A stretch of 63,625 nt of DNA, filler included, from Stramenopiles sp. TOSAG23-6 (taxonomy: Eukaryota), in NCBI GenBank assembly GCA_900128565.1. It is 9 parts of 9 records of this genome, joined end to end, with 100 filler letters (N's around TTAATTAATTAA, not from the genome) between each part and the next. Parts side by side here need not be neighbours in the genome. Positions count along the whole stretch, not along the records: positions 1 to 8,696 come from LT636424.1; positions 8,797 to 17,465 come from LT636426.1; positions 17,566 to 26,232 come from LT636427.1; positions 26,333 to 34,991 come from LT636428.1; positions 35,092 to 43,744 come from LT636429.1; positions 43,845 to 52,493 come from LT636430.1; positions 52,594 to 61,227 come from LT636431.1; positions 61,328 to 62,426 come from LT639729.1; 1 more part is not named here. One strand, given 5' to 3'. Shown here piece after piece: positions 752 to 63,370 of the stretch. The position numbers and the translations under genes are program-made. The notes beneath the pieces were generated by a model. The model was given only the letters and a program-made list of their open reading frames with translations, was not told the origin of the DNA and made no database searches. How positions within the stretch are numbered: the first letter of the stretch is position 1; each line of letters opens with the position of its first letter.

Positions 752-1719
752 TCAGGAAACCCGACGCCTCTTACAATTAGGACTTAATTTTTCATTTTCA
801 TTATTAATCACAGTTTTAGAATATCCACCAGTTTGACCTCCTTTAGTGAGAGCTATCCGGTACTGAATTTGAGCACTTTCCGATGGAAAAGCATTCAAAA
901 CAGTCGCTTTAAATATTTTCTGATCTTGGCTCATCGTGTCAGTACTAGATTTTACCTCGACAAATACTAAATGTTTTTTTTTCCATAGCACTAAATCTGG
1001 ACATCCACGCCATTCAAGTTCATTCATTATAATGTTGAGCAGCTTCTCAATAATATGTCTACCCAAACAAATTACTATGTATTGTGATGTTTTTTTTCAA
1101 TCAAAAAAAAATCATTAGGTACAAATTTTCCTACGAAAAAAAAATGTAAAAAAATGATGAAAACGCACATGTCTGCAGTGATGGCTTTGCTATACCAACC
1201 TCTAATAACACAAGGCAAAGGATTTCTCACTGAACGTTGAAATTCCTTAGTAGCGATAGTTTTCCATAATCTACTTTCGGCATACGCCCCTCTCCAACCA
1301 TTTGATGGGCTGTATGCAGCAACATTTTGACAAACGGTAAACGTTTTTCTTAACTTTTCAAAACATTTTATAGTTGTCGGACTCCCTGCCCAGCGTGAAA
1401 GAAGATACACAAGAGTACCTATTTCAACCGATACGCGAATAGATTTATCCACGGCATACATCAAATCGAGTCCAACGAGACCCCAGATGCGAATTTGGTG
1501 GTTATCTAATTTCGAAGATATTAGACTTTTGGGCACGACAGCTCTGAAGTGCGACGTAACTTCTGATATATAGTTTTCTAGAATAATGGACTGTGCTTCA
1601 ACTGTTCTTCGCGCTTCTTTTGGTTGTAGCTTAAATGCTTCCTGAAAGGCAAAAAACAGAGCCGGTTTTCGTTCGTCATAAAGGGGTGCGTATATGATAC
1701 CTCCCTTTTGAATAACCAT
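752..1719 (-). CDS. VRR-NUC (FAN1-like) PD-(D/E)XK nuclease domain protein, 2 exons
   Basis: Removing intron 1077-1168 joins ...ITAD-I-VICLGRHII...RGCPDLVLW...FVEVKS..D.MSQDQ, the VRR-NUC GxPDL / EVK motifs. Confidence 0.75.
1077..1168 (-). other. non-canonical spliceosomal-type intron, GT-AT (92 nt)
   Basis: AT|GTGCGTTTT...TTTGTACCTAAT...CACAATACAT|A; excision restores the frame between ORFs 1075..1719 and 752..1066. Confidence 0.8.
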
Positions 1720-1962
1720 TGTTCGATGATATCTCCCACGATATCATGCTTTATTAAAGCAAATATAAGAAGAAGGAGAGAATAATCGAAATCGCGAATC
1801 AAAATTTAATTGACTCAACCCTAACCCTAATCTATATCCTTGATTGACTGATTGTTTTTGATTGTCACAACACCAAAAAACTCAGTCTTGACTCTTGAGT
1901 TCGACTTCTGAAGTCTCGAATGTATATTATTTTTTTAACTACTACAAAAGTATTAATTTATT

Positions 1963-3255
1963 GTGACCGATATTATAAGTACGTACCACAAGAAACACAT
2001 CAAGATTATGTTTCGTCTTCAGAGATATTGGAGAGGGACTTACTCTGTATACTGTTTACGAAAATCGACTTATCGTTGCTTCTTTGGTAATGCATGTTCC
2101 TCATTTCGTTATTTTTCACAGGTCGCCACAACACAGCCTATATATAAGGAAAAACTTCACACTGCTGTTGAGACAGGAGATTTCCCCACATTTTCGAAGT
2201 TATTGAGAGAGTGTAGTGTTGACTTAGACCTAGGTGACGCTTCAAAAGGAGGTACAACTGCTTTATTACTGTCGATACGTCTCGGGCGTATTCAAATGGC
2301 AAACGAACTTATTGAAGCTGGGGCAAATGTCAATAAATCGGGTGCATGGAATTTCTCTCCGCTCATGTATTGTGCAATATTCGGCCAAACTGAAATTGCA
2401 GAGAAATTATTATCATATGGAGCTGATAAGCACGCTGTTGACTCCCGTGGAGATACAGCTTTATGCCACGCAGTAGGAGAAAGACATCTTGATATTGTCG
2501 CTTTACTTGATGACCCTAACCCTAATGATGATTCAAAGATACTTTCTAGCGTTAAAGACAAAGAGCATCACTTTGTTGACGACACTGATTTGCATGGTGG
2601 TTTTATGAAAAAGGAACATTTAGAAAAATCAATTCGGCAGTTGACGTTATCACAACAACGATTTGTTGTTTCTGAGACTCTGCAAATTCAAAATTCGAAA
2701 GGTATGAAAATTGATATAGCTTCAATGTCTAGTGAATTACAAGAGAAAGAAAATAATATAGAAGGGATGCCTAAAGCCCTTGGTAATATCACTATAAATG
2801 GATTTACTACAAAGGATGTTGATAAAAAAGAAAGTGATTATTCACAAGGTACATTTTATTCCTCTGTTAGCGGCTTACCACTGTTTTGTTTCAATGATTT
2901 TATTGAAGACAAAACAGAATTAAAAGATATTTTAAACAATATCGATGAATTGGAGCGTCCTGATATTCTTGATTTTTTTTGGTTTGATGTTTCGAAATAT
3001 TCACAGAATTTTGTAATTCAAGATGTCAATGATAAAAAAGAAAGTAAAATATTTGATAAAAAATCGGGAACGTTAGTTGGTTCAGCTTTCCCTAACCCTA
3101 TTCAGGACTCTCCATGTGATTTCGTGTTTGGAGTTCATGGAGCAGCCCTCTGTTTTGACGAACTTTCTAAAGAAAATTGTGTTTTTGTATCTAGTATCAA
3201 TAGATACATTTTGAAGGAAGTTAAAATATATGATGGAAGTGACCTGATTCATTGA
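1963..3255 (+). CDS. ankyrin-repeat protein with N-terminal targeting-like peptide and degenerate MsrB-like C-terminus
   Basis: Ankyrin repeats (GTTALLLS..GRIQMANELIEAGANVN; SPLMYCA; GDTALCHA); C-terminal GTFYSSVSGLPLF and GSAFPNP..VHGAALCF resemble the MsrB fold. ATG start probably lies downstream of 1963. Confidence 0.7.
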   Translation: MTDIISTYHKKHIKIMFRLQRYWRGTYSVYCLRKSTYRCFFGNACSSFRYFSQVATTQPIYKEKLHTAVETGDFPTFSKLLRECSVDLDLGDASKGGTTALLLSIRLGRIQMANELIEAGANVNKSGAWNFSPLMYCAIFGQTEIAEKLLSYGADKHAVDSRGDTALCHAVGERHLDIVALLDDPNPNDDSKILSSVKDKEHHFVDDTDLHGGFMKKEHLEKSIRQLTLSQQRFVVSETLQIQNSKGMKIDIASMSSELQEKENNIEGMPKALGNITINGFTTKDVDKKESDYSQGTFYSSVSGLPLFCFNDFIEDKTELKDILNNIDELERPDILDFFWFDVSKYSQNFVIQDVNDKKESKIFDKKSGTLVGSAFPNPIQDSPCDFVFGVHGAALCFDELSKENCVFVSSINRYILKEVKIYDGSDLIH

Positions 3256-3783
3256 AATTTTTGACCTGATTCATTGAAACTTTTGGGGCTAGCTAGAGTT
3301 ACAATATCAAATTACTTTAACACGAAAAATGCTGTCTCTATATAGCTGGAATATACGTTAAACCACGAAAAATCAGGAGGAACTACTCTTAGGACTCTTG
3401 CAGTAGGAGGAATAGGAAAATTACAAATGAATATTTCAAGTTCTACATATTGAAAGATTGATTCTAATAAATGAATTTTTAAAATTACTTTTACTAAGAG
3501 TTCTTAGTATTCAGGTTGTGANTTTGTTTNAGAATATTAGAAAAAAATGATCGATTCTGAGATTTTAGAGGTGCGCAGATTTCAAAATTTAAATTCTTCT
3601 GCGAAGTCATTTTCGAATTCCGAATTTCGAATTTCGAAAATTTCAAATTTCGAAATTTAAATTGGTACGTTATTTTTGGCGTATCCAAAAAAGTGAAAAA
3701 CGTATCCTGCAGGTGGCAGTACCCCATTCTGTCATATTCCGCAGATTGAATAGCTAGGAGAAGAAATTATCACACACATTACA

Positions 3784-6551: not shown

Positions 6552-7920
6552 ATGCTTCGTCGTTTTTTTTTCATACCAAAAATTCCGAAGTTGGAAAGTA
6601 AAAATCTGATAAAAACTGCACGGTTAAGTATCGAACGCCCGAAGCTTGTATATGTGGGAACTTGTAAAAAATGGCAGACAACATTGGAAGTCGAGCCTGA
6701 TTGTCCCTCCAGTATCGTTGGGTTTTTCAAACTACATTTTCCAAAACTAAAAAAAAACGAATTATACAAGATGCTGCGGAAAAAGCGAGTTGTTGTTGAA
6801 ACGAATAAAATAGGTAATGGTGTTTCCCATAGATCTAAAGCTCGCTTTGATACCAGCATCTCCGGTGGAGACCTCATTCACTTTCCATCTTGTATGAAAG
6901 AATTTCTAATCCAAGACGCTACAAACTCTACAAGTCGTAAGAAAACTCCTTCTCAACAAGATCGCTTTTTAAGAAAGGCTGGAATAGAGATAGTATATTC
7001 TGACAATAATTCTGTGGTAATCAACAAGGCGTATGGAATAGCGGTCCAAGGTGGTACGGATACTATAAATCATCTGGGTGATGTTTTGCATGCTGCAGGT
7101 CTTAAATTAGTACATCGATTGGATAAAGAGACGTCCGGTTGTCTTCTGTTGGCGAGAAATCGAAAGGCTGCTTCTTTTTTAACTTCTCAGTTTGAACTTC
7201 GGAAAGTTAGAAAAATGTATTGTGCACAGCTTTCGAGGAAAATAAAGCCCATATTACCACAACGTGGATGTTTATCAGCTCTATTTATAAATGGAAATAC
7301 AGCCATTCGAAAAGGTAAAGCAAAATTTTCAGGAATTGAGAATTTTTCTTGTAGTCATTTATTCAATAGTAATAGTAATAGTAATAGTAATAGTAATAGT
7401 ATTAGTAATAGTATTAGTAATAGGCATGGTAAGTCATCAGTGACTAATTATATCCAAATGACAACAACGAGTAAGCCTTTTTTTGCTCTTTTCCCTTACA
7501 CAGGGCGAAAGCATCAATTGAGAATTCATTGTGCTGCTTTGTTCGAAGCCTCAATCATTGGTGATTTGAAATATTCAAGTGAAAAAAGTCTTTATAAACC
7601 AAAAGAAATGCTTTTACATGCGAGAAGTTTGATGTATACTAGTCTAGATGGTACAGTTGTTCACGTTCGATCACCATTTCCAAAATATATGTACGTTTTC
7701 ATTTCGTTTGTATTTTTCTTTTGTAGATAATTTTTGTACCTAACAGAAAAATATATTTTTTTTAAATATTTTTCTAAAATATATGAAAGATAGTTGGTCT
7801 TTGTCCTTGAGAAATAATAGTAACGATAATAATATTATGAAATCAAAATATGGTACATCCATTGAGGATAGTTCTGAGTTAGTCTGGATTGACTTTAATC
7901 AAGTGCTAAAATCAAAATAA
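6552..7920 (+). CDS. RluA/RluC-family RNA pseudouridine synthase, 2 exons
   Basis: VINKAYGIAVQG, VHRLDKETSGCLL, TGRKHQLRIH, IIGDLKY, LLHA motifs; intron 7691-7784 (GTACGT...ATAT) gives an open last exon to TAA at 7920. Confidence 0.9.
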
Positions 7921-8696: not shown

Positions 8697-8795
8697 NNNN
8701 NNNNNNNNNNNNNNNNNNNNNNNNNNNNNNNNNNNNNNNNTTAATTAATTAANNNNNNNNNNNNNNNNNNNNNNNNNNNNNNNNNNNNNNNNNNN
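8697..8795. other. artificial contig linker (N..TTAATTAATTAA..N)
   Basis: The same six-frame-stop linker recurs at 17466, 26233, 34992, 43745, 52494, 61228 and 62427. Confidence 0.97.
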
Positions 8796-9677
8796 NTTTT
8801 CATACGAAATTTTGTACCTAACAAATTTTTTTAGATTTTTTTTTTGAAATATTTTTCCAAAATACATAAAGCATTTCTTATTGCTTGTGAGCGCGGAAAT
8901 TTACCTGTTTTAGAGTACTTATCGAAAGAAGGATTAGACCCAACACATACTGCCGTGAAAGATTCAATATTTAGATGTGTCAAGGGTTCAAAACAAATCA
9001 ATTCAATAGTACATATAAAAGGTAAACCAACAATGCAGGCCAATGTGTCTCCTAGTATCGTGCCCATGTATGTTTTATTTTTTTTTCAACAAAAAAATCG
9101 ATTTTTTTTTTTATAAAAATTTTGTACCTAACAAATTTTAGTTTTTTTTTTTGTAATATTTTTCCAAAATACAGTGTCCAATGGCTTCTTAAGAAAGGAC
9201 TTGATGTAAATGCTTGTCATGAAAAAGCTAACCCTAATGAAAAATATGCAGATTTCAAAATGAATGGTCTCACTCCATTACATATTGGATGTGCTAAAGG
9301 CGACTACGGAACAGTCAGGGTACTTGTTCAAGGAGGAGCTGATGTTAATGTATGTTTTTATTTTTTTTTTTTTTTACCGAAAAAAAAAAAAATCGAATTT
9401 TTTTTTTTTTGGTAAAAAAATTTTGTACCTAACAAATGTAGTAATGTACTAAAAAAAATATTTTTTCACAATACATGCTGTTGCTCAAAATAATGTCCTT
9501 CCGTTACACTGTGCTTTAGCCACAGTCCAGTCATCTAAAGAAAGATTTGCGAGAACATCAGGAAATATGGATGAAACTAATAAACAAATATTTGCTAGAT
9601 CAATAGCTATAAAGGAAAAAATTATTGAACTACTATTATCAAAAGGGGCGCGAAAATCCTGGAGAAGAGACATATAA
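8796..9677 (+). CDS. ankyrin-repeat protein, 5'-partial, multi-exon
   Basis: ACERGNLPVLEYL, GLTPLHIGCAKG..GADVN|AVAQNNVLPLHCA; introns 9068-9174 (GT-AG) and 9350-9476 (GT-AT) restore the frame. Confidence 0.8.
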
Positions 9678-10098: not shown

Positions 10099-10907
10099 CT
10101 ACACAGATCCAACAGATCCAACAGATCCAATAGATCCAATAAACTGAGAATGTACTTTTAAGATTTTTTCTCCAATGGTATTATAGTCAGCATCTTGAAC
10201 TTTGACAGGAAGAGTATTGCAAAAACCAGTTACTCCAGTATCCCGAATACCTATAAAATCAAAAATTTGTTGTAAATACGTTCCACAATGATCATATAAT
10301 GTATTTTGGAAAAATATTTCAAAAAAAAATTTTGAAAATTTGTTAGGTACAAAATTTTAATTAAAAAAAAAATCGAATTTGAAAAACAATAAAACGTTCA
10401 TGAACCATTTATATGTCCATTTGGTGGCAAACTCCCACTACTCATTATGATGTGCCCTGTAATATGCTTCAAGTGTCCATTCCATTTGTGGTTTGCACCA
10501 TAATGAAAAGTTTTTCGGCTTCTTACTATATGGTCAATCCATAGCTTCAGACACGCAGGAACGTTGAAGTTATACATTGCTGTTGAAATAATCAGAATAT
10601 CTGCATCCATCAACTCCTTACAGAGTACATTTGACTCAACTAGTCGAGCAACTTCTTCAGGGTAGTTTCCGTTGGCCCGTTTATGATTATACACTCCTTT
10701 TACATATAAAGAATCGAGATGGGAAGGGGGATTTTTAACCAGATCTCTAGAAACTAATTTTACACTTGCAAGTTGCCGAAGACTCTTAATCAAATTATTC
10801 GCCGCTTGCCTACTCCTAGATAAAGAATTACTTCGCGCACTTGACGTTACAAGCAATACATTCACCATTTTTTGTTCACTTCCGTATGCCTTGACATTGT
10901 GTTCCAT
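10099..10907 (-). CDS. azoR: FMN-dependent NADH-azoreductase (flavodoxin-2 fold), 2 exons
   Basis: SSAR..SLSRS, ADILIISTAMYNFNVPACLKLWIDHI.R..KTF.Y, SSG, then after intron 10299-10399 YLQQIFDFIGI. Start codon uncertain. Confidence 0.8.
10299..10399 (-). other. non-canonical intron, GA-AT (101 nt)
   Basis: AT|GAACGTTTT...TTTTGTACCTAAC...CCAAAATACAT|TA; removal gives NGS-L-YDHCGTYLQQIF. Confidence 0.75.
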
Positions 10908-13187: not shown

Positions 13188-14363
13188 ATGAAATGGTCAC
13201 GTTCGTTGTTTACAGTAGTATGTTCTTCATCAATGGCATTTTTATTAGTATTTCTCCGGAAGCGTAAACGAAACAATTTCATTATAAAAGAGAAGATTCA
13301 TAACTTTTCTATTGTTGTGCACGGGGGTGCGTGGGCAATCCCTGACAAAATTTCAGAGGCAACATTAAATGGTGTTAAACGAGCAGTAAATATAGGGTAT
13401 AGTATTTTAAACAGTGGGGGGACTGCTCTACAAGCTGTTGAAGCAGCAGTTCGAGAATTAGAGCTTAATCCTGTATTTGACGCCGGTGTTGGGTCTGTGT
13501 TGAATAACGAGGGTGCAGTTGAAATGGACGCTATGATAATGTGTGGCAAAACTCTTTCTACGGGCGCAGTTGCTGGAATCAGCAATGTACGCCATCCAGT
13601 CACTGTTGCACGACTAGTAAAGGAAAAAACAGACCACGTAATTTTTGTGGGTTCTGGAGCTGATCAACTCGCGAAGGAGCTCGGAGTAGAGACTGTCGAC
13701 CAATCAGTGCTTGTAACACCTGCTGCACGCATAGAATGGGAAACATTCAATAAATACAAAGCATCTGTTGGAGCTCTTTTCGATAATTCGACCTCAGTTG
13801 GTCACGATACAGTAGGTGCTGTTGCAATGGACAATTTTGGTCATCTTGCATGTGCGACAAGCACTGGAGGAATAACTGCAAAGAAAAAAGGTAGAGTTGG
13901 GGACTCTCCATTTGTAGGATGTGGTGGATACGCTCAAGATGGTGCAGGAGCTGTTTCTACAACTGGTCACGGTGAATCAATCATTAAAGTTGTTTTAGCT
14001 CATCGAATTATTGAAAGTCTTTCAAGCAATTACCCTAACCCTAACCCTGAAATTGTTCAAAGTGTTATTAAAAAAAATCTAGAATACATGAAGAGTAAAG
14101 TATCTGGGTATGGTGGTGCAATTGCAATAGATAGAAATGGTTTTGTGGGTATCTCGCATACCACCAAGCGTGTATGTTTTTATTACGAATATTTTTTTAT
14201 CGATTTTTTGTAAAATATTTTTTTCTAATTTTTTTTTCATAGAAAATTTTGTACCTAACGAGAAAAAAAATTAAAAAAATATTTTTTCACAATACCGATG
14301 GCTTGGGCAAAAGCAGAAAGTCGAACGGGTGGAAAAGTAAGCGGAGGTTTGAATATTAGATAG
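13188..14363 (+). CDS. ASRGL1: isoaspartyl peptidase / L-asparaginase (Ntn hydrolase), 2 exons
   Basis: IVVHGGAW, FDAGVGS, EMDA, HDTVGAVA, ATSTGG, GRVGDSP, STTGHGE; intron 14172-14297 gives HTTKR|MAWA. Confidence 0.92.
14172..14297 (+). other. non-canonical intron, GT-CG (126 nt)
   Basis: CGT|GTATGTTTT...TTTTGTACCTAAC...CACAATACCG|ATGGCTTGG; no in-frame AG available at the junction. Confidence 0.75.
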
Positions 14364-14385: not shown

Positions 14386-14475
14386 GTATGTTTTTTTTTT
14401 TCACTTTCGAATTTTTTTTTATAGTAAATTTTGTACCTAACGATTTTTCTTTTGAATTTTTTTTTCAAAGTACAT
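14386..14475 (+). other. same-family intron in 3' UTR, GT-AT (90 nt)
   Basis: Donor, branch motif and a divergent acceptor (TTTTTCAAAGTACAT) 22 nt after the ASRGL1 stop; no frame constraint available. Confidence 0.55.
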
Positions 14476-14682: not shown

Positions 14683-15832
14683 TTACTTTACCATACCGTT
14701 AGGCTTGCCCTTTGCTTGTTGAAGTATTACAATAATAGCAGTCATGTTGTCTTTCGATCCTAAGGCTAAGCATTTGTCTAATAATTTTTGAGGTACCATG
14801 TATTTTGGAACAATATTTCAAAAAAAAAAACTAAAATTTGTTAGGTACAAAATTTTTATAAAAAAAAAAATCGATTTTTTTGTAAAAAAAAAAAAATAAA
14901 AACATACATTTTCATTTCGGTTCCATTATTTATTTCAGCATTTAGAAATGATATACACTCTACATTAGTCATTACATCCCAAATGCCATCACACGCAATG
15001 ACTATGAATTTATCACTTGGTTGTCTTTTTACTGTGAGAACGTCGGGGATGTATTTTGGAAAAATATTTCAAAAAAAAAAATCTAAAAAAACTGTTAGGT
15101 ACAAAATTTCGTACGAAAAAAAAAATCAAATTTTCAAAAAAATAAAACATACATTGGTGAAACAGCTTGTGACTCAGGTTGTAAATCTGGTGCCTTGTAC
15201 ATAAAATCTCCGAGTGCTCGAGATACTGCCAAATCTCCATTCACGCGATTCATACTTACAGTTCCACCGGCTGCTACGATTCTTTTAGTTTCGATAGGGT
15301 TTTTTGGTTTATGGTCATACGAGAGGGGAAACGCATTTATTGTATTATCAGCATTTTGCCTACAAAGGACGGCACGAGAGTCGCCAACGTTGGCACAGAC
15401 AATATGGTCAGATGTTATATATGTTACACAAGCTGTTGTACCACTACAATCTGTACCAGTTTTTACACACGGTTGCTGTAAAAGCCATTTGTCCATAGAA
15501 ACCATCGTCTTTTCAAAAACAGTCGTGAAGACTTCTGGGGTAATTTCTGAGGAAGACTGGGGAGATTGGGTTTCTAGTATTTCACGTGTGGATATCTGAA
15601 ATTGACCTAATAAGCGTTTACCACTTTCCTTTGCAGCCCAATCCCCACCATGACCATCAAATACACCAAACATACAATTATTACCGTCTATACCAGTCTT
15701 GCAGATTTCTGCGTCTTCCATAGAAATCCGATAACCTTGCATTGAGGCTGAGGTAACATGAATTCCTCCCTCTGTATATATTTCTTCATGCACCTCCTTT
15801 GAAGTGATAGGCTTATCTAGAAAAGATCCCAT
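14683..15832 (-). CDS. protein phosphatase 2C (PPM family), 3 exons
   Basis: MGSFLDKP, SMQGYRISMEDA, VFDGHGG, ANVGDSR, LAVSRALGD, ACDGIWDV, GSKDNMTA; GT-AT introns 15049-15152 and 14798-14907. Confidence 0.95.
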
Positions 15833-16898: not shown

Positions 16899-17041
16899 GT
16901 ATGTTTTTTTTTTTTTTTTTTTTCGTACGAAATTTTGTTCCTAACAATTTTTTTTTTTTTTTTTTTTTTTGCTTTTCATACGAAATTTTGTACCTAACAA
17001 AAAATTTTAGATTTTTTTTGAAATATTTTTTCAAAATACAT

Positions 17042-17364: not shown

Positions 17365-17414
17365 GTAAGTTTTTTTTAATACGAAATTTCGTACCTAACC
17401 AAACCAAACCAAAC

Positions 17415-17447
<33 letters not shown>

Positions 17448-50900: not shown

Positions 50901-50908
50901 TAGCGTAA
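44930..50908 (+). CDS. 1992-aa intronless EF-hand protein with helical repeats, short collagen-like segment and STEIQDD tandem repeats
   Basis: DLNHDGKVTLEE, DSNNDGIIDPQE, DSNKDGTIDFKD; GPPGKDGIQGPRGPPGKD; 21-nt repeats ~49660-49790. Confidence 0.75.
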   Translation: MSFGKPRVKTKRRRSRNATFSRKERHQLFQLFDLNHDGKVTLEEVKRTFAKIDSNNDGIIDPQELAALQVVLFQCEMVGQKTVSRLQLNSLLDSNKDGTIDFKDVVSILKRLERWSPRSSEGRTINNSFRTKSDPQWKARLWGKCSLYQIPKNKNQTMRDARNRKTISEREAHIPNNVTQVKLMDILEVPISKLVKLLIEKKTLQLENLYEIVIVLWNFFHSITLKNSNPTIDENKTLTKMSLSVISKALMTYCNHGKKNNRITDVNHFKQQIFKACYSILRCPHLWRSIEDPLKFKSKKTKSTLKDVGVIRSPTAPDISLSSFKHKQPEIAKHDNDAHTKKAEFKTDDIYDMAFNSLNNLNSLYNENNTSNSDKSKYKQMKKTEHAYAIDDAIIKHSNKVVKIKKQNEDEKHNAKKKFELAEISALRGIHTEKEKSEANAKDEYQRNITGILHEHLNPDYEENGSVFTAVENQMVVAAKKHKKEIDFINTVRKRDTELAEIQDNDSSHIKAEFDKSINKAKQKYKTEIKHILDEYFDANKHSLPRKSRLTYDVITMKMLRATNQFSEKLCEIGDLHNDNKRVLQNNTEQEAVHILKNIESKKIKAMALARCNHNKTIKKVLGKTPEVLFPSVKKHNNTRALVVQAVIKTTENFVMETNKICKDHKYKMEELEIQGSDTTLINSVLDASMDKAKQRYEIEMKTIIYKYFDAEKLDGPLDIQELLIGVLNADVTDEILKIKAVHYDKEKLRKENLENETTLAFKDIAAAKKGSMMAANKEYKMNIKKFLDGLVFARRDLNSERYQETKQKMIVVAAKAYVTEVEFINSTYHGDIEEARGNYISRISSKLDSSLAKAKDKYTTALRSILDEKFGKNKDIKKSNPFYDEIITKCLNISTQHTKKVDEIKVLYDGKVQVALRGIDINMQYDIDHAKQKHKSFTKSILENSLSNNENSNKQAYAVITEQMVNAAMVYVKQVKMQTALHRKRTEATFSQGLDPKIYETKTYIKAKYEAKKKYKIAMQTILDEYCKTNRFSASRKGNLKYNIITLKLLRVTTQYSDKVARIEALHEGENKLSSQHLDSKMDMAVQTINDNKDRAIANAQNNYEISMKNMLDNYCDILYPKVIATKNLNSEVEHLITSSATTYAVESEKIKRKYEFDIQDAKAHHNSSDQIVHDYKQALKKLKHSYILGMNDIFREYFVMNHKDGSNNQNNMEDDEIVKKCTNLASEYITALSKIKRLFDNKRRNIKQEKWDKTVAAIHSLENEERMLINQSRTEQMKKVNSIFDSYLNQDDTFSANKAQQRLQENNHSPRMKLRKMNLNFLRHVLNHNPEKIQEDVSEDKKQINFLRDRLNVGPKTTEEDTSENKKQINFLRDKFNVSPKIAHENISKDKTQINFLREKFNDSPKKEKQDISENYNMIEDSLEELYRKIDSSSGKDLDHERMKKKVIAVNIQGPPGKDGIQGPRGPPGKDAISNSNVVVILKETEKIDDSEATIKSLVEIKSSLNDNTKNNILVIKGSDKFVEDVDKLNPSKDSTKQALSEIKKSLDTIVAVVDKNASKNIFGIPKNIVTNDVEDESTEIQDESTEIQDDSTEIQDDSTEIQDDSTEIQDDSTEIHTEMEEMRDSASEIHAEMVEMRDSSSEIHAKMVEMGDKATGMQDDTVVAEADAIEMQEKAMKILKISNKRRVSVGLPRQNITRQVQELINRRRRELGLFDDIEPLDSRRAELGLFQKNSDVKMSEAENMIAKFEMPVRPFGSIGTDRDIQNDLSIEMRIQRMKERAIESDNIAKHSLRKRATKMQSERRLRKLLKGHPYGKPYPHAIARNMRSLWRLPEEYSVDDKLFYDRFFEAKSYIYTPPKCNFGLYSCEEDYERDKNVNFRVAEAIRAIDKYYKGSRRLRKMFLEQPHSSEYYCASQYSDINTITPPSSRFVNKIQESVRDFATIDYYVCTPHNKYPCSTVYTDRLQSKIPSSREVTESVMRNKVARSIA

Positions 50909-51045: not shown

Positions 51046-52435
51046 CTAATTCCAAAATGTTGCAGTATATTCTGGTGGATCGCCACGGGCTTCCATTTCC
51101 TTTTCAAACGCATGATCGCCTAGCCAATTCATTTTTGCTGCTATATCTAATGGCAGTAAACCTTCATATTGAGCTGCAAAGAAACGTGCCAAGGTCATTC
51201 GGAATTCATTAGCGGCTATATAGTGGTAAACAGATATGCTTGTACCAATTGTTTTTGTAGTTGCGTCAGATTTTACAGGGTATATTTCACCTGCACCAGT
51301 TGGCATCACCGTATGTAATCTTGGAACTATCAAGGGATATTTCTTACCGCAACTTTCAGGTGAAACAATTTTAACCACAGCATCAGCTTTTTCAACTTCA
51401 TGTATTTTGGAAAAATATTTCAAAAATATTTCGTTAGGTACAAAATTTCGTACGAAAAATAAATTCGAAATTGAAAAAAAAATAAAACGTACATTATGTT
51501 TTTGATCAGCAGAACAATTTTTATCATTTGTATTCTGTGAATCGATCATTAATATTCGCAATTGTTTTATTGCACACCAACGAAGTTCAAAACTTTGAGA
51601 TCCTACTGATCCCATCAATGAAGAAAGTAATGCACCATATTTTATTTTACAACAATGTAGATTTTCTAAAAATTCATTTTCACATGCAAGCATATCTTTG
51701 TTTAAAGAAGGTGTTAATTTGCCAATGACTAATAATAGCAATTTGTTCCACAAATTGCGACTCATTTGAGAATTTCTCATTCGATGTTCGATTATATGCA
51801 TTTATTTTGGAAAAATATTTGAAAAAAAAAACTTAAATTCGTTAGGTACAAAATTTCGTACGCAAAAATAAATTCGATTTTTCTGTTAAAAAAAAATAAA
51901 ACATACGAATCCTCAAGAGAAATTTGAGGAACTGCACAGGATTTTTTCGAGGAGCCAACTGCAGCAGTTACTACACCAACAGCTTTTTCTAAGAGCGTTG
52001 TTCCCATCCCTTTGCTACTACTGACATGTCCGCTATTTAGTTGATCTTGCTGTCCAACACATTTATTTTGGAAAAATATTTGAAAAAAAAATCATTAGGT
52101 ACAAAATTTTTATAAAAAAAAAATTCGAATTTGAAAAAAAATAAAACATACATAATGATCGAGCAAGCAATCGAAGACCTAACACACATAAACTTTCGGA
52201 TTTGCGTGACAATAAAGAAGCCCAAGTTTTTTTCACTGTTGCTTTTATCGAATGTAAAATATATGCGGGAACATTTCGGAGGAATATTTTTATCACTGGA
52301 ATTATATCTATATCGGAAAGATTTGAATCTGAAATATAGTTCAAAATTTCTACAGAACTTATGACAATGTTTGACCTCAAACCATTAATTGTGTCATGTT
52401 TATCTATGCTATTTTGCGTAGTACCATTAAAACTA
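51046..52435 (-). CDS. hypothetical helical (HEAT-like) protein, 3' exons
   Basis: Minus-strand ORF pieces separated by four family introns. Confidence 0.5.
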
Positions 52436-52593
52436 TTGATTTTGGAAAAATATTTCAAAAAAAAATCTAAAAAAAATTGTTAGGTACAAAATTNNNNNNN
52501 NNNNNNNNNNNNNNNNNNNNNNNNNNNNNNNNNNNNNTTAATTAATTAANNNNNNNNNNNNNNNNNNNNNNNNNNNNNNNNNNNNNNNNNNNN

Positions 52594-54799
52594 ACGAAAT
52601 TTTGTACCTAACGATTTTTTTTTGAAATATTTTTCCAAAATACATGAACATTGTGGTGCTGTTATTGGAATTGATCTCATCACAAATAAAGTCTGTTTTT
52701 TTTCTGACTGTGGTGGAATTAGTCCTAACCTTTACAAAAGTAAAAATTCTAAACATTCTACAAAATGTAATACAAAATGTAATACAAAATCTAAAAGTCG
52801 TATTAAATGTCAATCACTCATACGAAAATGTAAACAAGTCAAAGGTGGTATGCTTTGTGATGAACCAGGTTTAGGCAAAACTATTACAATACTTGCTTTA
52901 ATACTACGCTCTGTTGGTCGGTATGCTGTGACACCTCGTCGATGTCCAATTTATTTTTCACAAAATGTGGAAAATGGGTCAAGAAGAGATCAACGAAGAG
53001 TTTGTGCAATGAGTAAATTGATACATTTAGATTCTAATTTACTTCAATCATTCACAACATTAATCATTGTTCCACCACCACTTATTGAACATTGGGCGAA
53101 TCAAATGAAAGAGCATGTTGATTGGCGATATGTAAACTATACAAATAAAAGTAAAAACACGAAAAACACTAAAAAGACTAAAAAAAAAAACATTGTGTTT
53201 CAAAATCGCATTGACCGTGAAAAACATGAAAAAGAATTAGCGTTTCAAGCATCGGTGTATATTGACGATGGTAAATCTAATATACCTGATCCAGAAACTC
53301 TTGCATCCTATACAATTGTTCTTACCTCTTTACAACGTATGAGCACTGAGCAAATGAAGCAAGATCGATCAAAGAGATTGAGAGAGGAAGTAGACAACTC
53401 TAGTTATAGCAGTATCGATGATACAGTAGAATGTTATGTATCACCATTTTGTAGATTACGATGGCTTCGTATTGTTGTTGATGAAGGACATAAAGTGGCT
53501 TCAAATTGCTCATCGATGACTGTCTTTGTAATGTCGCTCACGAAAGAACGCACATGTATGTTTTCAGTATGATTTTTTTTTGAAATTTTTTTTCATACGA
53601 AATTTCGTACCTAACAAAATTTTAAATTTTTTTGAAATATTTTTTCACAGTTCATGGGTCATGACTGGAACTCCAACAAAAGAAATAGATGATACTACGG
53701 CCTTAAAAAATCTACTTGGATTATTACAATTTATCCGACACGATCCATTCGGTCGATTTTATCCATCTAGATTGTGTGGTGAGAATGATATTTCTAGTAG
53801 TCTAAATTCTTCTTCATTTTCCACTTTAGGATGTGACCTTTGGCGTCGATTAGTCTCAAAACCATTATTGGCTGGTCGACAAGATGGTTTTATTCGTTGT
53901 CAGCGTGTAATGCAATCATTGATGGTACGTCACACGAAAGCGGATGTTCCTGATATACCCATTCCTATTCGACGGAATCATTATATTACATTGAATCCAA
54001 ATGAGTTACATGATTATAATACAAGAGTCGCATTTACACGTACAAATATTTTAATGACTGTACGACCCGCTGATGGATATGTACAACCTGAATCTTTACT
54101 AAATCCATCAAATTCAAGAGATGCACGTAATAATATAAGAGCAATTCAATTAATGTGTTGTGGTGGAGGACGACAAATCCCATCGATTACAGATTCAAAT
54201 AGAGAATCGACTAAAACTATGATGATGTCCGTACCATGTTGGAAATTGGGAGATGGAAAAGATCATTCAAAATGTGCTCGAGGTCAATTGGGTGCATCTG
54301 ATGGACACTGGTGTCGACATTATAAAATCGAAAAAAAAGGTTTACTTTCGATTGATAATAGAAAAATGAATGGTTTGGGATGTACTGAGCGTGTACGTCT
54401 TTTGCATTACAATTTTAAATTATATTTTTTTTTTTTTGTATGAAATTCCATACCTAACAAATGTTTTTTTAATATTTTTTTCATACTACATGAATGGCAA
54501 CGAGTAGATGATTTCATTGGTAGGGCCATTACAGGTGATGATAGTGTATGTGGCATGTGTGGAATTAAAGTTCAGTTATTACTTGTCACGCCTTGCTCCC
54601 ATTTATTTTGTGTGGATTGTATCCAGAGAAGTTTTTGGGAATGTCAATTATGTAAAAACATTCATCTTTTTGAAGATCTTCAAGTTTTACAACCTGGTTT
54701 TGAATTGAATTGGGCAGAGACTAAATCAGAAAGCTTGGCAAGAAGAAAGGAATTATTTAATCAAAGGCGAATGCTTCAACAACAGAGAGTTGATTCCAA

Positions 54800-54837
<38 letters not shown>

Positions 54838-56708
54838 ACATAGAAAGTGAATATAATGATATGGAAACAAATATTGTTACGTCAATGAGTATCTCACAAG
54901 GTATGGCAACGCAAGGAGGTTCTAAAGCCAAATATTTATGTGAAAGGATTAAATCCTTGAGAGAAAATGATACTCGACAATTACGAAGATTAATGCGTAG
55001 GAAATCTCAGTGTGTATGTTTTCAAAAAATGATTTTTATTTTCGTACAAAATTGTATACCTAACAATTTTTTTTTTATTTTTTTTTATTTTTTTACATCT
55101 AACAAAAACATTGTACTATAGAAATATTTCTTCACAATACATGGTGAAAATAATGGTAAAAAAATAGAATTTTCTCCTTGTAAGATTATTGTATACAGCC
55201 AATGGCGTAAAGTATTAAATCTTGTAGGTAATGATTTAATCCATACTTTTGGTCAAGATGCTGTTGCTGAGTTTTATGGTAAATATCGTAGTGAAGAAAT
55301 GCATAAATTTAGATATAATGAACAAAGAGAATGGATATGCAAATATTGTAAATATAATAATCTTTCTGCTGACTCTTGTTGTCAAAATAGTTATTTACTG
55401 GTTAAATTTGAAATTGCTACCGAAACGACTACAAATACAAATACAATGGGTAATACTCCAAGACACATTGATGACTCTTTGAATTCGTTTTGGTCTGGAT
55501 GGGAAGAAAATTGTATTGGATTACCTGATAAACCACCATATAACAAAAGAAAACGAACTGTAGAACATTCTGAAGGGTATAGATACATGTGGATATATTC
55601 TGTAAATGTTGATAATTATTCTCTAGGTCAAAGGTACAACATTGGTGATGTTATTGTAACTTTTGGAAGGCCTGGTATTGTTGTGGACAGATCTCATTGT
55701 GGTTGTAATCAACTTCAAGCAACTCATAGATCTCGACGTGTTGATTGCTCTGTGATGCTTCTCGGCTCAGATGGAAGTCTTGGACTTGATCTTTCCTTTG
55801 TAACTCATATATTTCTACTTGATAAAATATGGGCATTTGATTTGGAACAACAAGTCGTTGCACGTGCCCATCGTATGGGAGCTGTACAACCTGTAATTGT
55901 AGAACAATTAATTGCTCGTGGAACGATTGAAGAATTAATGATGTCAATGGGTTCTCGCAATCATGTTTCAGATTCAAAGAATGAACAAGGAATGATGATT
56001 GATGACAAAAAAAACGAAAATTGGAAATGTATGCTATGTGACCTTGAACTAAATAAGAAAATTGCACCTGCTGGACATTTGTGTCTTGCATGTCTCGCAG
56101 AGCGTGAAAAATTGACAACACCAACAGTGGGTAAAGTTCGGAAAAGAGTTCCAAGTCGAAATGACATACATCTTGGTTTAGCTACAAAAAAACGTAAGAG
56201 TGGAAACCGTCGTCGTATTCTTCGTGGAACTGCTGTTGAAGATCATGCAAAAACAATTTATATTTTAAATAATATTTCATTACTCCGAAGACATTTATTG
56301 AGAGATGATAAAGAGGTAGAACGTATACATAATAATAATAATAATCATAATAATAATAATAATAATAATCATTATAATCATTATAATAATAACGAGACTG
56401 GTCATGAGGATGTAGATAAAAATGTTACAAATCAATATAATATGACACACAATCAAAATAATATTGATGTTTTAAATAATAAAAAAGTCCGTTTGGATAC
56501 AAATAGTGGACGGAAGACTCAGGAAATTCGCAATTCGTTAGGTACAAAATCTAGTACGAAAAAACAAAAATCAATTTCAGTTTTGCCAAGTGTCAACCCT
56601 CTAGGTGTTTGGTACTGTAGGAGTGGGTGTGGGAAATTTTTTCAAGATGAAAATGGTGAAATTAAACATTATAATAGGAGGTTTAAATATTGTTCCTCAT
56701 TTAAATAG
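52594..56708 (+). CDS. SNF2/Rad5-like helicase with internal RING finger, 5'-partial
   Basis: GGMLCDEPGLGKT, RIVVDEGH, T|WVMTGTP, CGMC..TPCSHLFCVDC, KIIVYSQW, GLDLSF, EQQVVARAHRMG; GT-AT introns 53556-53655, 54393-54491, 55014-55142 all restore the frame. Confidence 0.92.
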
Positions 56709-59021: not shown

Positions 59022-61227
59022 TTGGAATCAACTCTCTGTTGTTGAAGCATTCGCCTTTGATTAAATAATTCCTTTCTTCTTGCCAAGCTTTCTGATTTAG
59101 TCTCTGCCCAATTCAATTCAAAACCAGGTTGTAAAACTTGAAGATCTTCAAAAAGATGAATGTTTTTACATAATTGACATTCCCAAAAACTTCTCTGGAT
59201 ACAATCCACACAAAATAAATGGGAGCAAGGCGTGACAAGTAATAACTGAACTTTAATTCCACACATGCCACATACACTATCATCACCTGTAATGGCCCTA
59301 CCAATGAAATCATCTACTCGTTGCCATTCATGTAGTATGAAAAAAATATTAAAAAAACATTTGTTAGGTATGGAATTTCATACAAAAAAAAAAAAATATA
59401 ATTTAAAATTGTAATGCAAAAGACGTACACGCTCAGTACATCCCAAACCATTCATTTTTCTATTATCAATCGAAAGTAAACCTTTTTTTTCGATTTTATA
59501 ATGTCGACACCAGTGTCCATCAGATGCACCCAATTGACCTCGAGCACATTTTGAATGATCTTTTCCATCTCCCAATTTCCAACATGGTACGGACATCATC
59601 ATAGTTTTAGTCGATTCTCTATTTGAATCTGTAATCGATGGGATTTGTCGTCCTCCACCACAACACATTAATTGAATTGCTCTTATATTATTACGTGCAT
59701 CTCTTGAATTTGATGGATTTAGTAAAGATTCAGGTTGTACATATCCATCAGCGGGTCGTACAGTCATTAAAATATTTGTACGTGTAAATGCGACTCTTGT
59801 ATTATAATCATGTAACTCATTTGGATTCAATGTAATATAATGATTCCGTCGAATAGGAATGGGTATATCAGGAACATCCGCTTTCGTGTGACGTACCATC
59901 AATGATTGCATTACACGCTGACAACGAATAAAACCATCTTGTCGACCAGCCAATAATGGTTTTGAGACTAATCGACGCCAAAGGTCACATCCTAAAGTGG
60001 AAAATGAAGAAGAATTTAGACTACTAGAAATATCATTCTCACCACACAATCTAGATGGATAAAATCGACCGAATGGATCGTGTCGGATAAATTGTAATAA
60101 TCCAAGTAGATTTTTTAAGGCCGTAGTATCATCTATTTCTTTTGTTGGAGTTCCAGTCATGACCCATGAACTGTGAAAAAATATTTCAAAAAAATTTAAA
60201 ATTTTGTTAGGTACGAAATTTCGTATGAAAAAAAATTTCAAAAAAAAATCATACTGAAAACATACATGTGCGTTCTTTCGTGAGCGACATTACAAAGACA
60301 GTCATCGATGAGCAATTTGAAGCCACTTTATGTCCTTCATCAACAACAATACGAAGCCATCGTAATCTACAAAATGGTGATACATAACATTCTACTGTAT
60401 CATCGATACTGCTATAACTAGAGTTGTCTACTTCCTCTCTCAATCTCTTTGATCGATCTTGCTTCATTTGCTCAGTGCTCATACGTTGTAAAGAGGTAAG
60501 AACAATTGTATAGGATGCAAGAGTTTCTGGATCAGGTATATTAGATTTACCATCGTCAATATACACCGATGCTTGAAACGCTAATTCTTTTTCATGTTTT
60601 TCACGGTCAATGCGATTTTGAAACACAATGTTTTTTTTTTTAGTCTTTTTAGTGTTTTTCGTGTTTTTACTTTTATTTGTATAGTTTACATATCGCCAAT
60701 CAACATGCTCTTTCATTTGATTCGCCCAATGTTCAATAAGTGGTGGTGGAACAATGATTAATGTTGTGAATGATTGAAGTAAATTAGAATCTAAATGTAT
60801 CAATTTACTCATTGCACAAACTCTTCGTTGATCTCTTCTTGACCCATTTTCCACATTTTGTGAAAAATAAATTGGACATCGACGAGGTGTCACAGCATAC
60901 CGACCAACAGAGCGTAGTATTAAAGCAAGTATTGTAATAGTTTTGCCTAAACCTGGTTCATCACAAAGCATACCACCTTTGACTTGTTTACATTTTCGTA
61001 TGAGTGATTGACATTTAATACGACTTTTAGATTTTGTATTACATTTTGTATTACATTTTGTAGAATGTTTAGAATTTTTACTTTTGTAAAGGTTAGGACT
61101 AATTCCACCACAGTCAGAAAAAAAACAGACTTTATTTGTGATGAGATCAATTCCAATAACAGCACCACAATGTTCATGTATTTTGGAAAAATATTTCAAA
61201 AAAAAATCGTTAGGTACAAAATTTCGT
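58705..61227 (-). repeat. apparently exact 2523-nt inverted copy of 52594-55116 (truncated SNF2 gene)
   Basis: Identical ORF translations on opposite strands; coordinate sums match (113821); identity stops inside an intron. Confidence 0.95.
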
Positions 61228-61465
61228 NNNNNNNNNNNNNNNNNNNNNNNNNNNNNNNNNNNNNNNNNNNNTTAATTAATTAANNNNNNNNNNNNNNNNN
61301 NNNNNNNNNNNNNNNNNNNNNNNNNNNTTTTTTTTTTTTTTTTTAAAACAAAAAAAAAAACGATTTTTTTTTTTTTTTTTTTTTTTTTTTCATACGAAAT
61401 TTTGTACCTAACAAATTTTTTTTTTATAGAAAATTTTTAAAATATTTTTCCAAAATACATCAGTA

Positions 61466-62426
61466 GTGTCTGATGAAGTTGCAATGAAAATATCTTCTGT
61501 TTTATCCGAACAATGTAAAGCAACACGAAATAAACAAAATGTATATCCAGTACATAATATACAAATTGAAACGGCTTATGAAATCGTTCAAAGTTCCGTA
61601 CAAAAATTATATACACAAATAAGTCGGCTTACATTGGACAAAAAAAACAAAAAAAACAAAAAAAACAAAAAAAACTCATTACAATTCTTAGGTACAGAAA
61701 TTCGTATGAAAAAAAATGAAAAAAATAATTTACTAAAAAAAATACTACAAAATATTTATATAATTAGAGCAGGTGTTTTGACTTTGCATTCATCTATTCA
61801 AATCAAGGAAGAAAAATTATTATTACAATATGCTCAAGCTCAAACTATTTTTGATTTTGATACAAAAATCGCAAAACAAAAAAGACAAACATTTAAGAAA
61901 CTTTGCCGTACTCATCATCATTTTGATGATACAGATGTCCAATCATCGCCAACACAAATATATCAACAACAATCTAATGCTGCATGTCAAGTTGCATCAA
62001 TTTCAAAAATAGTCTTATATAAAATGAAAAATAAATTGTATCGAGAGAGACAGGTTTTGCATACTATGAAAGACTATACTACAGAAATCGAGCATACTAT
62101 AAACACTATTATAAAATATCTGCCAAATACAATGAAAACGTTTGAGAGCAAAGATAATGAGACCAAAGGTAATCGTCATTATTTGTCGATGGGTAAAAAA
62201 TTATCTATACAACACACAAAAATTATTGAAAATATTGAAGGAAAAGTAAATGACAAAAAAAACAAATATGATGATAAAAATAACAACCAAAATAAAGAAA
62301 TTGTATTTCATTATTTGGAAAATCTTGGCCTTGAACAAACCAAACAACTCCTACATAGAGTTTGCCTAGACATAAATACAAAAAATACAAAAAATACAAA
62401 AAATACAAAAAATACAAAAAATACAA
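61466..62426 (+). CDS. hypothetical protein exon, partial
   Basis: Open frame after a family acceptor at 61460, running to the contig end. Confidence 0.45.
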
Positions 62427-62526
62427 NNNNNNNNNNNNNNNNNNNNNNNNNNNNNNNNNNNNNNNNNNNNTTAATTAATTAANNNNNNNNNNNNNNNNNN
62501 NNNNNNNNNNNNNNNNNNNNNNNNNN

Positions 62527-63370
62527 AAGTGACTTTGACCCGACCAACTGGTTGATAAAAAGTATATCAACGTTTTCAAAAAAAAAAAAAAAATAAGACA
62601 CCCAACCATAGTTAAAATACGTTTGAACGAAGAAACAATATTCGTTAAGAAGATAACCATCCTGTTTGTTCACAATTAACACAAACCCTGTCGACTTTGA
62701 ACTCCATGGGGCCATTCAAAACACTGACTTACGCCAACATCGTTGCCACCAACACTGTGTCCATGGATATCAACAATCAACATACACACAGCACTAATAC
62801 TATTACAGCAGCAAAAGAAGAAAGAATTAATGTAGGTGTTTATTTTTTATTTTTTTTTAAATGTTAGGTACAAAATTCCCTACGAAAAGTTCTGACAATT
62901 TATTTTTATTTTATTTTTTTTATTTCATAGTAAATTTTGTACCTAACAAACTCTTCAACGTTTTGAAACAATATTTCCCCAGAACACATACTCTTCAACA
63001 CATGTTAACCGAGGCTTTAGTACAAATAAAAACAGCAGGTAATTCAATGAAAAATTTAAAGAAGGGAATTGATATGATAAAATTGTGTGTTGAACCATTT
63101 TCTATTGTACAAAAAGCCGAAAATCTCCGTCAATATTTGAGAAATAAAAAGTTACTTTTCAAATTGCATACTATTAAAGATGAAGTAGCAAAGGAATGTG
63201 AGTTTTATTTTTTTTCAAATTCCAAATTTTTTTTTTTTTTTGGTTTTTATAAACATTTTGTACCTAACAAATTTAAGTTTTTTTTTTGAAATATTTTTCT
63301 AAAAGAAATGGAGAGTTATTAAAAAAGAACGTGCTCAAAAAGATAGTTGGACACAGCAAATGAGTACAAG
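62527..63370 (+). CDS. hypothetical coiled-coil protein, internal exons
   Basis: Short coding-like segments between family introns (acceptors ~62989 and ~63309). Confidence 0.35.

Follow-up and report, generated by a model that had tools for sequence, protein, structure and literature searches.

Short introns ending mostly in AU and a U1 snRNA gene with matching changes, as predicted from nine contigs of Stramenopiles sp. TOSAG23-6

The window analysed here, a stretch of 63,625 nucleotides (nt), filler included, from Stramenopiles sp. TOSAG23-6 (assembly GCA_900128565.1), contains a short, stereotyped element that recurs within its protein-coding genes. We read the copies as one introner-type family, a set of short, mobile introns, nearly identical to one another, that have become dispersed through many unrelated genes, and we consider removal by the major spliceosome probable, at boundaries that are GU at the 5' end and, in most copies, AU at the 3' end. 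Few signals of nuclear splicing are as constant as the terminal AG, which is near-universal and is recognised on two occasions, at an early stage by U2AF35 or U1 and in the second catalytic step through the branch A together with G(+1) and G(-1). In this family the 3' boundary appears, at the level of sequence, to lie 2 nt past a conserved ..ATAC, whatever those two nucleotides are, and the window carries a U1 small nuclear RNA (snRNA) gene whose variant 5' end is complementary to the 5' sites of the elements.

The window consists of nine contigs of one genome, which do not form one locus, joined by linkers of the form N44-TTAATTAATTAA-N44 (8697-8796, 17466-17565, 26233-26332, 34992-35091, 43745-43844, 52494-52593, 61228-61327 and 62427-62526). 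Its G+C content ranges from 27 to 43%, and the genome is AT-rich. Protein searches gave, as the best matches for two of its genes, gene models (P0002 and P0121) that equal the window except in mis-modelled pieces; their EukProt labels start with GSMAST32, P0241 is of the same kind, and the source is most likely a single-cell assembly of an uncultured marine stramenopile of MAST-3 type. The 19-nt core of the element, ACGAAATTTTGTACCTAAC, is found 59 times with up to 3 mismatches, against 0.07 matches expected from shuffles, and a profile hidden Markov model built from curated copies gives 68 matches at E<1e-3, which fall into 65 loci. Since one intron is counted as two loci and four loci merely repeat others, in the second arm of an inverted duplication, the unique loci number about 60. 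Complete unique copies could be curated in 48 cases (73-143 nt, the element being typically about 100 nt long), and about 10 others are truncated at contig ends. The many near-identical copies are spread over all nine contigs, in unrelated host genes and at non-homologous positions, which is the distribution looked for in introners, and their density is about one per kb of coding sequence. The host genes are of PP2C, asparaginase-type, SNF2, PfkB-type, ankyrin, TPP-enzyme, AzoR-type, VRR-NUC and coiled-coil kinds.

The element follows the pattern (c)AT/GTAYGTTTT ... GTACGAAATTTTGTACCTAAC ... T-rich ... TTTTTCMMAATAC+NN, where the slash before GT marks the exon-intron boundary. Read from the 5' side, the consensus has exonic (c)AT, then GTAYGTTTT and T-rich sequence up to (C)GTACGAAATTT(T/C)GTAC-CTAAC; more T-rich sequence leads to GAAATATTTTTCMMAATAC, two bases and exonic (G). 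An internal palindrome, GTACGAAA with TTT(T/C)GTAC, lies directly 5' of CTAAC, the predicted U2-type branch site. As RNA, the conserved 3' block is UUUUUCMMAAUAC, followed by two further intron nucleotides that are mostly AU. Across the 48 curated copies, to which the following counts refer, the 5' dinucleotide is GT in 45, GC in 2 and GA in 1, so that G(+1) is invariant. The last two nucleotides are AT in 39 and AG in 4 (9174, 18064, 35336 and 40290), with single instances of CG (14297), CT (36256), TT (35972), AC (39216) and GT (41597); the AG end of major spliceosomal introns is thus replaced by something else in 44 of 48. Expressed with the preceding C, the ends are CAU in 81%, CAG in 8% and rarely other dinucleotides (C at -3 in 39 of 48), and of the six copies without a final T, five end in G. 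Conservation over the final 20 bases of the intron is approximately 85-94%. CTAAC occurs in nearly all copies, a count biased by ascertainment because CTAAC belonged to the search motif, and the tract that follows it is T-rich. The distance from the A of CTAAC to the 3' end is 34-48 nt in 44 of 48 copies, and ..ATAC always stands 2 nt before that end. In 21 of the 44 non-AG copies an AG that follows the branch-like motif is bypassed before the inferred 3' end is reached, and in 32 of them the downstream exon lacks an AG within its first 8 nt.

A first-pass annotation of this DNA had described about 60 stereotyped introns that mostly do not end in AG, their last two bases being AT in most and AG (9174, 35336), CG (14297), CT (36256) or TT (35972) in others. 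The profile loci, the number of unique copies and the 39 of 48 AT ends bear out this description, and all of its coordinates and special-case ends agree with the sequence. The copies are listed below, with the basis of each assignment in brackets.

1077-1168, minus strand: element copy, GTGCGT..AT, in a VRR-NUC-type gene (curated copies and frames)
7691-7784, plus strand: element copy, GTACGT..AT, in an RluA-type pseudouridine synthase gene (curated copies and frames)
8797-8871, plus strand: 3' part of a copy cut by the contig start (profile)
9068-9174, plus strand: element copy, GTATGT..AG, in an ankyrin gene (curated copies and frames)
9350-9476, plus strand: element copy, GTATGT..AT, in an ankyrin gene (curated copies and frames)
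10299-10399, minus strand: element copy, GAACGT..AT, in a flavodoxin-like (AzoR-type) gene (curated copies and frames)
14172-14297, plus strand: element copy, GTATGT..CG, in an asparaginase-type gene, HTTKR/MAWAKAE (homologue colinearity)
14386-14475, plus strand: element copy, GTATGT..AT, immediately downstream of the asparaginase-type open reading frame (ORF), with an ORF on neither side (curated copies and frames)
14798-14907, minus strand: element copy, GTATGT..AT, in a PP2C gene, at residue 290 of P0122 (homologue colinearity)
15049-15152, minus strand: element copy, GTATGT..AT, in the PP2C gene, at residues 242/243 of P0122 (homologue colinearity)
16652-16749, plus strand: element copy, GTATNT..AT, in a TPP-enzyme (ILVBL-like) gene (Pfam positions 2-36 and 41-87)
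16899-17041, plus strand: double copy with two branch motifs, preceded by an ILVBL-like exon and followed by a Cys-rich finger exon; probable chimera (frames and exon identity)
17151-17263, plus strand: element copy, GTATGT..(ATAA)AT (curated copies and frames)
17841-17959, minus strand: element copy, GTACGT..AT (curated copies and frames)
18064-18182, minus strand: element copy ending in AG, whose frame needs a GT 2 nt upstream (GTGTATGT..AG) or a shifted 3' end (frames)
23831-25937, minus strand: eight AT-ending copies in a Cys/Asp-rich repeat gene (curated copies and profile)
Members of this set, minus strand: 23831-23945, 24090-24190, 24631-24712 (5' end not found), 24877-24983, 25263-25359, 25488-25597, 25667-25761, 25832-25937
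28817-28922, minus strand: element copy, GTATGT..AT, in the wrong frame class, with a GATase-like ORF on one side and the C-terminal half of an ABC-2 transporter on the other; probable chimera
35336-35474, minus strand: element copy, GCACGT..AG, in a PfkB-type gene, EEL/GGGSAW, at residues 291/292 of P0242 (homologue colinearity)
35582-35678, minus strand: element copy, GTATGT..AT, in the PfkB-type gene, in a loop 6 residues longer than that of homologues
35831-35929, minus strand: element copy, GTACAT..AT, in the PfkB-type gene (colinear with P0242)
35972-36044, minus strand: element copy, GTACAT..TT, in the PfkB-type gene (colinear with P0242)
36256-36352, minus strand: element copy, GTTTGT..CT, in the PfkB-type gene, PLCG/KLSC, the conserved G being kept only in register 0 or -1
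37750-43581, minus strand: seventeen copies in coiled-coil and EGF-like genes (curated copies and profile)
Members 1-8 of this set, minus strand: 37750-37874, 38009-38109, 39216-39313 (AC), 39466-39566, 39744-39836, 40290-40395 (AG), 40533-40628, 40735-40836
Members 9-15, minus strand: 41597-41692 (GT), 41940-42030, 42212-42309, 42658-42768, 42855-42959, 43254-43394, 43477-43581
Members cut by contig ends, minus strand: 43634-43717, 35092-35182
51400-52151, minus strand: three AT-ending copies, 51400-51492, 51800-51906 and 52061-52151
53556-53655, plus strand: element copy, GTATGT..(GTTC)AT, in an SNF2 gene, restoring ..T/WVMTGTP (Pfam and sequence)
60166-60265, minus strand: identical second copy of the element at 53556-53655 (inverted duplication)
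54394-54491, plus strand: diverged copy, GTACGT..(CTAC)AT, in the SNF2 gene, outside the 48; duplicate around 59318-59402, minus strand
55014-55142, plus strand: element copy, GTATGT..AT, in the SNF2 gene (curated copies and frames)
63198-63309, plus strand: element copy, GTGAGT..(AGAA)AT (curated copies and frames)
17368-17465, 43845-43899, 52435-52493, 52593-52650, 61171-61228 and 61376-61471: further partial copies at contig ends (profile)
61672-61716 and 62861-62990: degenerate element pieces (profile)

In the last of these pieces, on a 1.1-kb contig, a pair of element fragments on opposite strands is arranged head to head; this is the only site at which sense orientation relative to an ORF is unclear. 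Most contig ends fall within an element copy, which suggests that the repeat limits the assembly. Seven of the contigs measure about 8.65 kb, with lengths that fall slowly from 8669 to 8634 nt among the near-equal ones, and two of about 1.1 kb follow.

The behaviour of the reading frames is consistent with precise removal of the elements as introns. In the frame test, the 5' end was fixed at the G and the 3' end was slid, a pass being at least 20 open codons on both sides; 49 rows were scored, including the duplicated copy. A 3' end 2 nt past ..ATAC passes in 42 of the 49, against 16-21 of 49 for each of the other two frame classes. Every curated copy is in sense orientation relative to the ORF that it interrupts. 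Within the 42 passing copies, retention would bring an in-frame stop in 34 (upstream frame), the length is not a multiple of 3 in 31, and the intron phases 0, 1 and 2 are represented by 17, 13 and 12 copies.

Homologues are exactly colinear over eight junctions in four conserved genes. At the CG-ending copy of the asparaginase-type gene, the restored TTKR/MAW corresponds to TTKRMAW or TTERMAW in the four aligned homologues. The exons of the PP2C gene correspond to residues 1-242, 243-290 and 290-315 of the nearest homologue, P0122, with no residue lost or gained. In the PfkB-type gene, which is 63% identical to P0242, four of the five junctions are colinear and lie at copies that end in CT, TT, AT and AG; at the fifth (35582-35678) the window's loop is 6 residues longer than in homologues. 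Matches to Pfam profiles resume after the element in two other genes, the SNF2 profile running over positions 12-153 and 159-262 on either side of 53556-53655 with 5 residues between, and the TPP-enzyme profile over 2-36 and 41-87 on either side of 16652-16749 with 3 residues between. The earlier claim that excision restores conserved motifs is thus substantiated at the asparaginase-type, PP2C and PfkB-type junctions and by the contiguous SNF2 coordinates, as is the claim that a CAG 5 nt upstream of the 3' end at 53556-53655 must be skipped, for its use would read ...T F H G S stop. Chance continuity of ORFs was considered as an explanation and was rejected on the frame test together with the colinearity of the PP2C and PfkB-type genes.

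A second line of evidence comes from four snRNA genes, which lie head to tail on one strand in the order U5-U2-U1-U4:

26341-26458, plus strand: U5 snRNA gene, Rfam 76.8 bits, standard loop 1 (CGCCUUUUACUAAAG)
26461-26657, plus strand: U2 snRNA gene, Rfam 138.8 bits, standard GUAGUA branch-binding box
26681-26840, plus strand: U1 snRNA gene, Rfam 54.1 bits, 5' end (A)AAACGUACAUGG
26846-26977, plus strand: U4 snRNA gene, Rfam 76.0 bits

The canonical 5' end of U1 is AUACUUACCUG, and the textbook 5' splice site is CAG/GUAAGUAU. The 5' end of the window's U1, AAACGUACAUGG, differs from the Rfam consensus AUACUUACCUGG at positions 2, 5 and 9 (U2A, U5G and C9A) and has an extra A upstream. Its reverse complement, CCAU/GUACGUUU(U), is the 5' site of the family together with an exonic CAU, and each of the three substitutions is complementary to a change of the site relative to the textbook sequence, namely U at -1, C/U at +4 and U at +7. 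Over positions -3 to +8 of the 48 copies, the window's U1 pairs on average at 10.1 of 11 positions, where the Rfam-consensus 5' end pairs at 7.3 of 11; the uninterrupted pairing of the window's U1 with the 5' site extends over 10-13 positions. In the profile search of the window no element match lies beside the U1 5' end, so the adjoining sequence is not a fragment of the element. We regard the U1 match as strong independent support for the view that the elements would be recognised by a spliceosome in a U1-dependent manner. Two further consequences follow from the predicted pairing. The geometry, with C8 opposite G(+1), places the 5' cut before the G, and pairing of U1 with the exonic AU would explain the exonic AT without a target-site duplication; the latter, as the whole explanation of the exonic AT, was set aside as unnecessary since pairing by A9-U10 suffices.

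The snRNA genes are separated by spacers of 2, 23 and 5 nt, which leave no space for separate promoters and suggest that the cluster is a polycistronic unit. U5 and U4 are each trailed by ..CTCTCACGAG(T/A)TACTGAT. Directly past U4, the stretch 26978-27060 starts with ATGCC and includes AAGGAAAAT; it is reminiscent of U12 snRNA, but Rfam at E<=1 gives no match there. Among snRNAs, the Rfam scan of the window found only U1, U2, U4 and U5. The cluster and the variant 5' end of U1 are new here; the earlier interpretation of the elements is in part supported at the level of sequence, and the U1 result sharpens it.

We propose that splicing would proceed as follows. The variant U1 would pair with the 5' site, including the exonic CAU, and set the cut before the G; the complementarity is observed in the sequence, and its function is hypothesised. 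U2 would then pair with the CUAAC that lies 34-48 nt upstream of the 3' end, and the second step would take place at the phosphate 2 nt past ..AUAC, a position given by frames and homologues, the chemistry being presumed. As to how the 3' end is recognised, it may be that U1 A9-U10-G11, which is complementary to the exonic CAU, pairs equally with the terminal CAU of the intron. More speculatively, the conserved 3' block could serve as a docking signal, with U(-1) in place of G(-1) opposite G(+1). It can be hypothesised that a single change of C9 to A could have moved the preference at the exon end and the early preference at the 3' site from G to U together. The first-pass annotation had postulated an AG-independent 3' site set by an upstream motif or by distance; the constant offset from ..ATAC would favour the motif. 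A site anchored to the motif would fit better than one anchored to distance, since the spacing from CTAAC varies over 34-48 nt and ..ATAC is constantly 2 nt from the end.

A broader proposition, which we advance tentatively and to which we give somewhat less than even weight, is that the splice code of this lineage has shifted: the introner would make up the bulk of the introns, U1 would have co-evolved with it at three positions of a 5' end that is otherwise near-invariant, and the choice of the 3' site would be independent of AG, being made through the conserved 3' block, pairing by A9-U10 of U1 and a second-step contact of G(+1) with U(-1). The consensus CAU/GUAYGU ... CAU/G may thereby have replaced CAG/GURAGU ... 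YAG/G. No convincing conventional GT-AG intron outside the family was found by a crude scan of neighbouring ORFs and inspection of 31560-32220, a search that was not systematic. If these propositions are true, the genome would provide a natural system for the study of 3'-site choice without AG, alongside a conventional 5' site and a U1 with three compensating changes, and would constitute a natural double-compensatory experiment at both ends of the intron. It would also allow one to ask how fast the core snRNAs follow a change of introns that is driven by transposons.

Several points weigh against removal by the major spliceosome at these boundaries. The U1 match of 54.1 bits is lower than the Rfam gathering score of 69.5 (E 1.7e-12 in a 1-kb search). 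Seven of the 49 rows fail the frame test; two of them are read as chimeras and one as using an upstream GT, and four are unexplained or have uncertain ends. Among the failing copies, 14386-14475 sits past a stop codon, and the ends of 40290-40395, 40533-40628 and 42212-42309 are uncertain or borderline. The copies at 16899-17041 and 28817-28922 are probably assembly chimeras formed at the repeat, since they join unrelated genes, which fits the contigs that end in copies. The terminal A (44 of 48) and T (42 of 48) are no more conserved than the preceding 20 nt, so conservation alone is no proof of selection on AU. Three public gene models of this genome, P0002, P0121 and P0241 (13524-14210, 14859-15832 and 36067-36760), leave elements unspliced: the elements are read through or a nearby GT-AG pair is forced, so that the models gain residues such as VCFYYEYFFIDFL, lose real exon and give no sign of transcripts spliced at the predicted junctions. 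Register -1 is compatible with every protein junction. Finally, 29 of the 48 copies have the same 2 nt before the GT as at the intron end (AT/AT in most, AC/AC in one and TT/TT in another), so that GT..AT, TG..CA and AT..AC would yield the same mRNA there; this is a modest excess over a shuffled mean of 23.8, and 21 of 10,000 shuffles reach 29. Searches with the proteins found no near-identical protein from outside this genome, of the kind that would derive from a transcript, that spans a junction, and the exon at 51493-51798 has no match of any kind. Four seawater metatranscriptome runs contain 0.08-0.09 of the sampled words of the contig at 43845-52493, which supports nothing on splicing. 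From the reading-through and mis-splicing in the three public models, it can be surmised that the proteome of this genome, and analyses derived from it, are likely to be wrong wherever the element sits.

The equal flanks bear most directly on the possibility that the introns are the same but have their termini 2 nt upstream (NN-GTAYG...ATAC), in which case most would be of the AT-AC kind and none would end in AT. The conserved ..ATAC, with C at -3 of the present numbering in 39 of 48 copies, is what such introns would require, and the copy at 10299-10399, which is GA..AT in register 0, becomes AT..AC once shifted. The compatibility of A(+1) with C(-1) in splicing is established, which also speaks for this alternative. 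U2-dependent AT-AC introns are mentioned in the abstract of PMC1557818. We nevertheless judge it unlikely and favour the unshifted register, with the cut before the G, because the shift would yield eight different 5' dinucleotides, the 19 copies without equal flanks starting with TT, GT, AC, TC, AA, GG or GA, because it would turn the invariant R of TTKRMAW into P and the conserved G of PLCG into A, and because the variant U1, in the standard geometry, puts the cut before the G. A different possibility is that the elements are excised at the level of DNA, or are insertions of miniature inverted-repeat transposable elements (MITEs) that break genes and are never spliced, the open frames then reflecting recent insertion or somatic excision. 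The terminal inverted repeat (C)ATGTAT...ATACAT(G), the weak excess of matching 2-nt flanks with its AC/AC and TT/TT pairs, and the contigs that break and recombine at the repeat would all accord with it. Excision of DNA needs no orientation, however, and all curated copies are in sense (in 42 of 49, long ORFs flank the element); the 5' site matches the genome's own U1 over 10-13 nt and is accompanied by a CTAAC branch motif; and elements at about one per kb of coding sequence, with stops on retention in 34 of 42, would disable most genes, conserved ones included. This explanation therefore appears very unlikely.

Most improbable, in our assessment, is that the elements are U12-type introns, or structured introns of the euglenid and diplonemid type that are removed without the spliceosome, with base-paired ends and a free terminal dinucleotide. 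The ends GUAU(G)UUUU and AAAAUAC are indeed able to pair. However, U12-type introns have the 5' box RTATCCTT and the branch sequence TCCTTAAC 10-26 nt from the 3' end, whereas the 5' site here is GTAYGTTTT and the spacing of the branch-like motif from the 3' end, 34-48 nt in 44 of 48 copies, far exceeds that range. Moreover, the complementary snRNA scores as U1 in Rfam; U11 belongs to the same Rfam clan as U1, so that only the better-scoring model would be kept. With regard to structure, six copies folded as RNA revealed no common or unusually stable fold (z -1.69, -2.01, -0.42, -0.37, -1.01 and +0.12), the intron ends are paired in one of the six minimum-energy folds, and, read across the rows of the copy alignment, the T-to-C change at +4 has no compensating change at its partner position. 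The nonconventional introns of diplonemids are, in the accessible part of PMC12621601, described without U1 complementarity. A giant-virus or prokaryote origin of the DNA was also considered, and it was rejected since the genes and snRNAs are eukaryotic.

Introners were reportedly treated by Huff and colleagues in 2016. The larvacean Fritillaria borealis is said, in work by Henriet and colleagues of 2019, to have mostly non-canonical introns that are thought to derive from MITEs and are removed by the major spliceosome; their termini are reportedly diverse (AG-AC, AG-AT and others) and include a non-GT 5' end, whereas in the present family only the 3' end departs from the rule. In fission yeast, C9-U10 of U1 is reported to pair with the 3' AG (Reich and colleagues, 1992, Cell 69:1159). 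The analogy would extend to this genome with a difference, as there a normal AG reportedly meets a normal U1 and here both partners are changed (C9 to A and G(-1) to U). Budding yeast, according to the title of a 1993 report by Seraphin and Kandels-Lewis, needs no pairing of U1 with the 3' site.

As far as the accessible descriptions go, introners of Micromonas, Aureococcus, dinoflagellates and many other, mostly aquatic, protists resemble the present family in that short, near-identical introns occur by the tens to thousands in genes that are unrelated, and they likewise have their own splice signals, a higher AT content than exons, inverted termini, a possible short target duplication and exact restoration of the frame. 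In the accessible parts of PMC9860276 and PMC12130899, introner families use GY-AG ends, and the latter accepted AG and AC as 3' ends and dropped families without transcript support; 44 of 48 copies here are non-AG, in contrast, and a co-varying U1 is not described in those parts. In Amoebophrya, according to the portion of PMC7789003 available to us, repeated introns with ends other than GT-AG and with inverted end repeats likewise occur, short direct repeats lie over the exon-intron boundaries, and the authors propose a MITE-like origin. The same portion reports no dominant dinucleotide pair, inverted repeats of 8-20 nt in hairpins and a missing U1 protein, whereas the family described here has a conserved, U1-matched GTAYGT 5' end, a dominant AT and no predicted stable terminal hairpin. 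The introns of euglenids and hemistasiid diplonemids also lack a 3' AG and have ends that can pair (PMC12621601, in part); they are described there as lacking U1 complementarity and having extensive pairing of their ends, with circles released in Euglena, whereas in the window U1 pairs at 10.1 of 11 positions and the pairing of the ends is weak in the six folds.

Searches with the exact 19-mer gave three unrelated chance matches in metagenome contigs, one in a metagenome-assembled genome of Bacteroidales and none in viral contigs, which leaves neither relatives nor empty sites for comparison. In the literature searched, the combination of a U1-matched 5' site, a dominant non-AG 3' end, a density of about one per kb and a triply compensated U1 was not found in print. 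The main texts of a single-cell MAST genome paper (PMC5778133) and of the Incisomonas paper (PMC12614181), in their accessible parts, make no mention of such introns, and their supplements may hold intron statistics.

Three regions of the window deserve mention in their own right. The contig at 52594-61227 contains the same SNF2 segment twice, at 52594-55142 on the plus strand and at 61227-58680 on the minus strand, with identical rows; this inverted duplication looks like a chimera of whole-genome amplification and not like biology. On the minus strand, 22094-23965 forms an ORF of 623 codons with a long Ala/Thr-rich low-complexity core, a G+C content of 0.43 and an AT skew of -0.39; it is flanked by Cys/Asp-rich units (..DNDNDGYP.. 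and ..DIDDTDPEIYP..), and its upstream exons are split by eight element copies. On the plus strand, 44924-50908 is an unbroken, element-free ORF of 1994 codons with N-terminal EF-hands, the neighbouring genes of which carry several copies.

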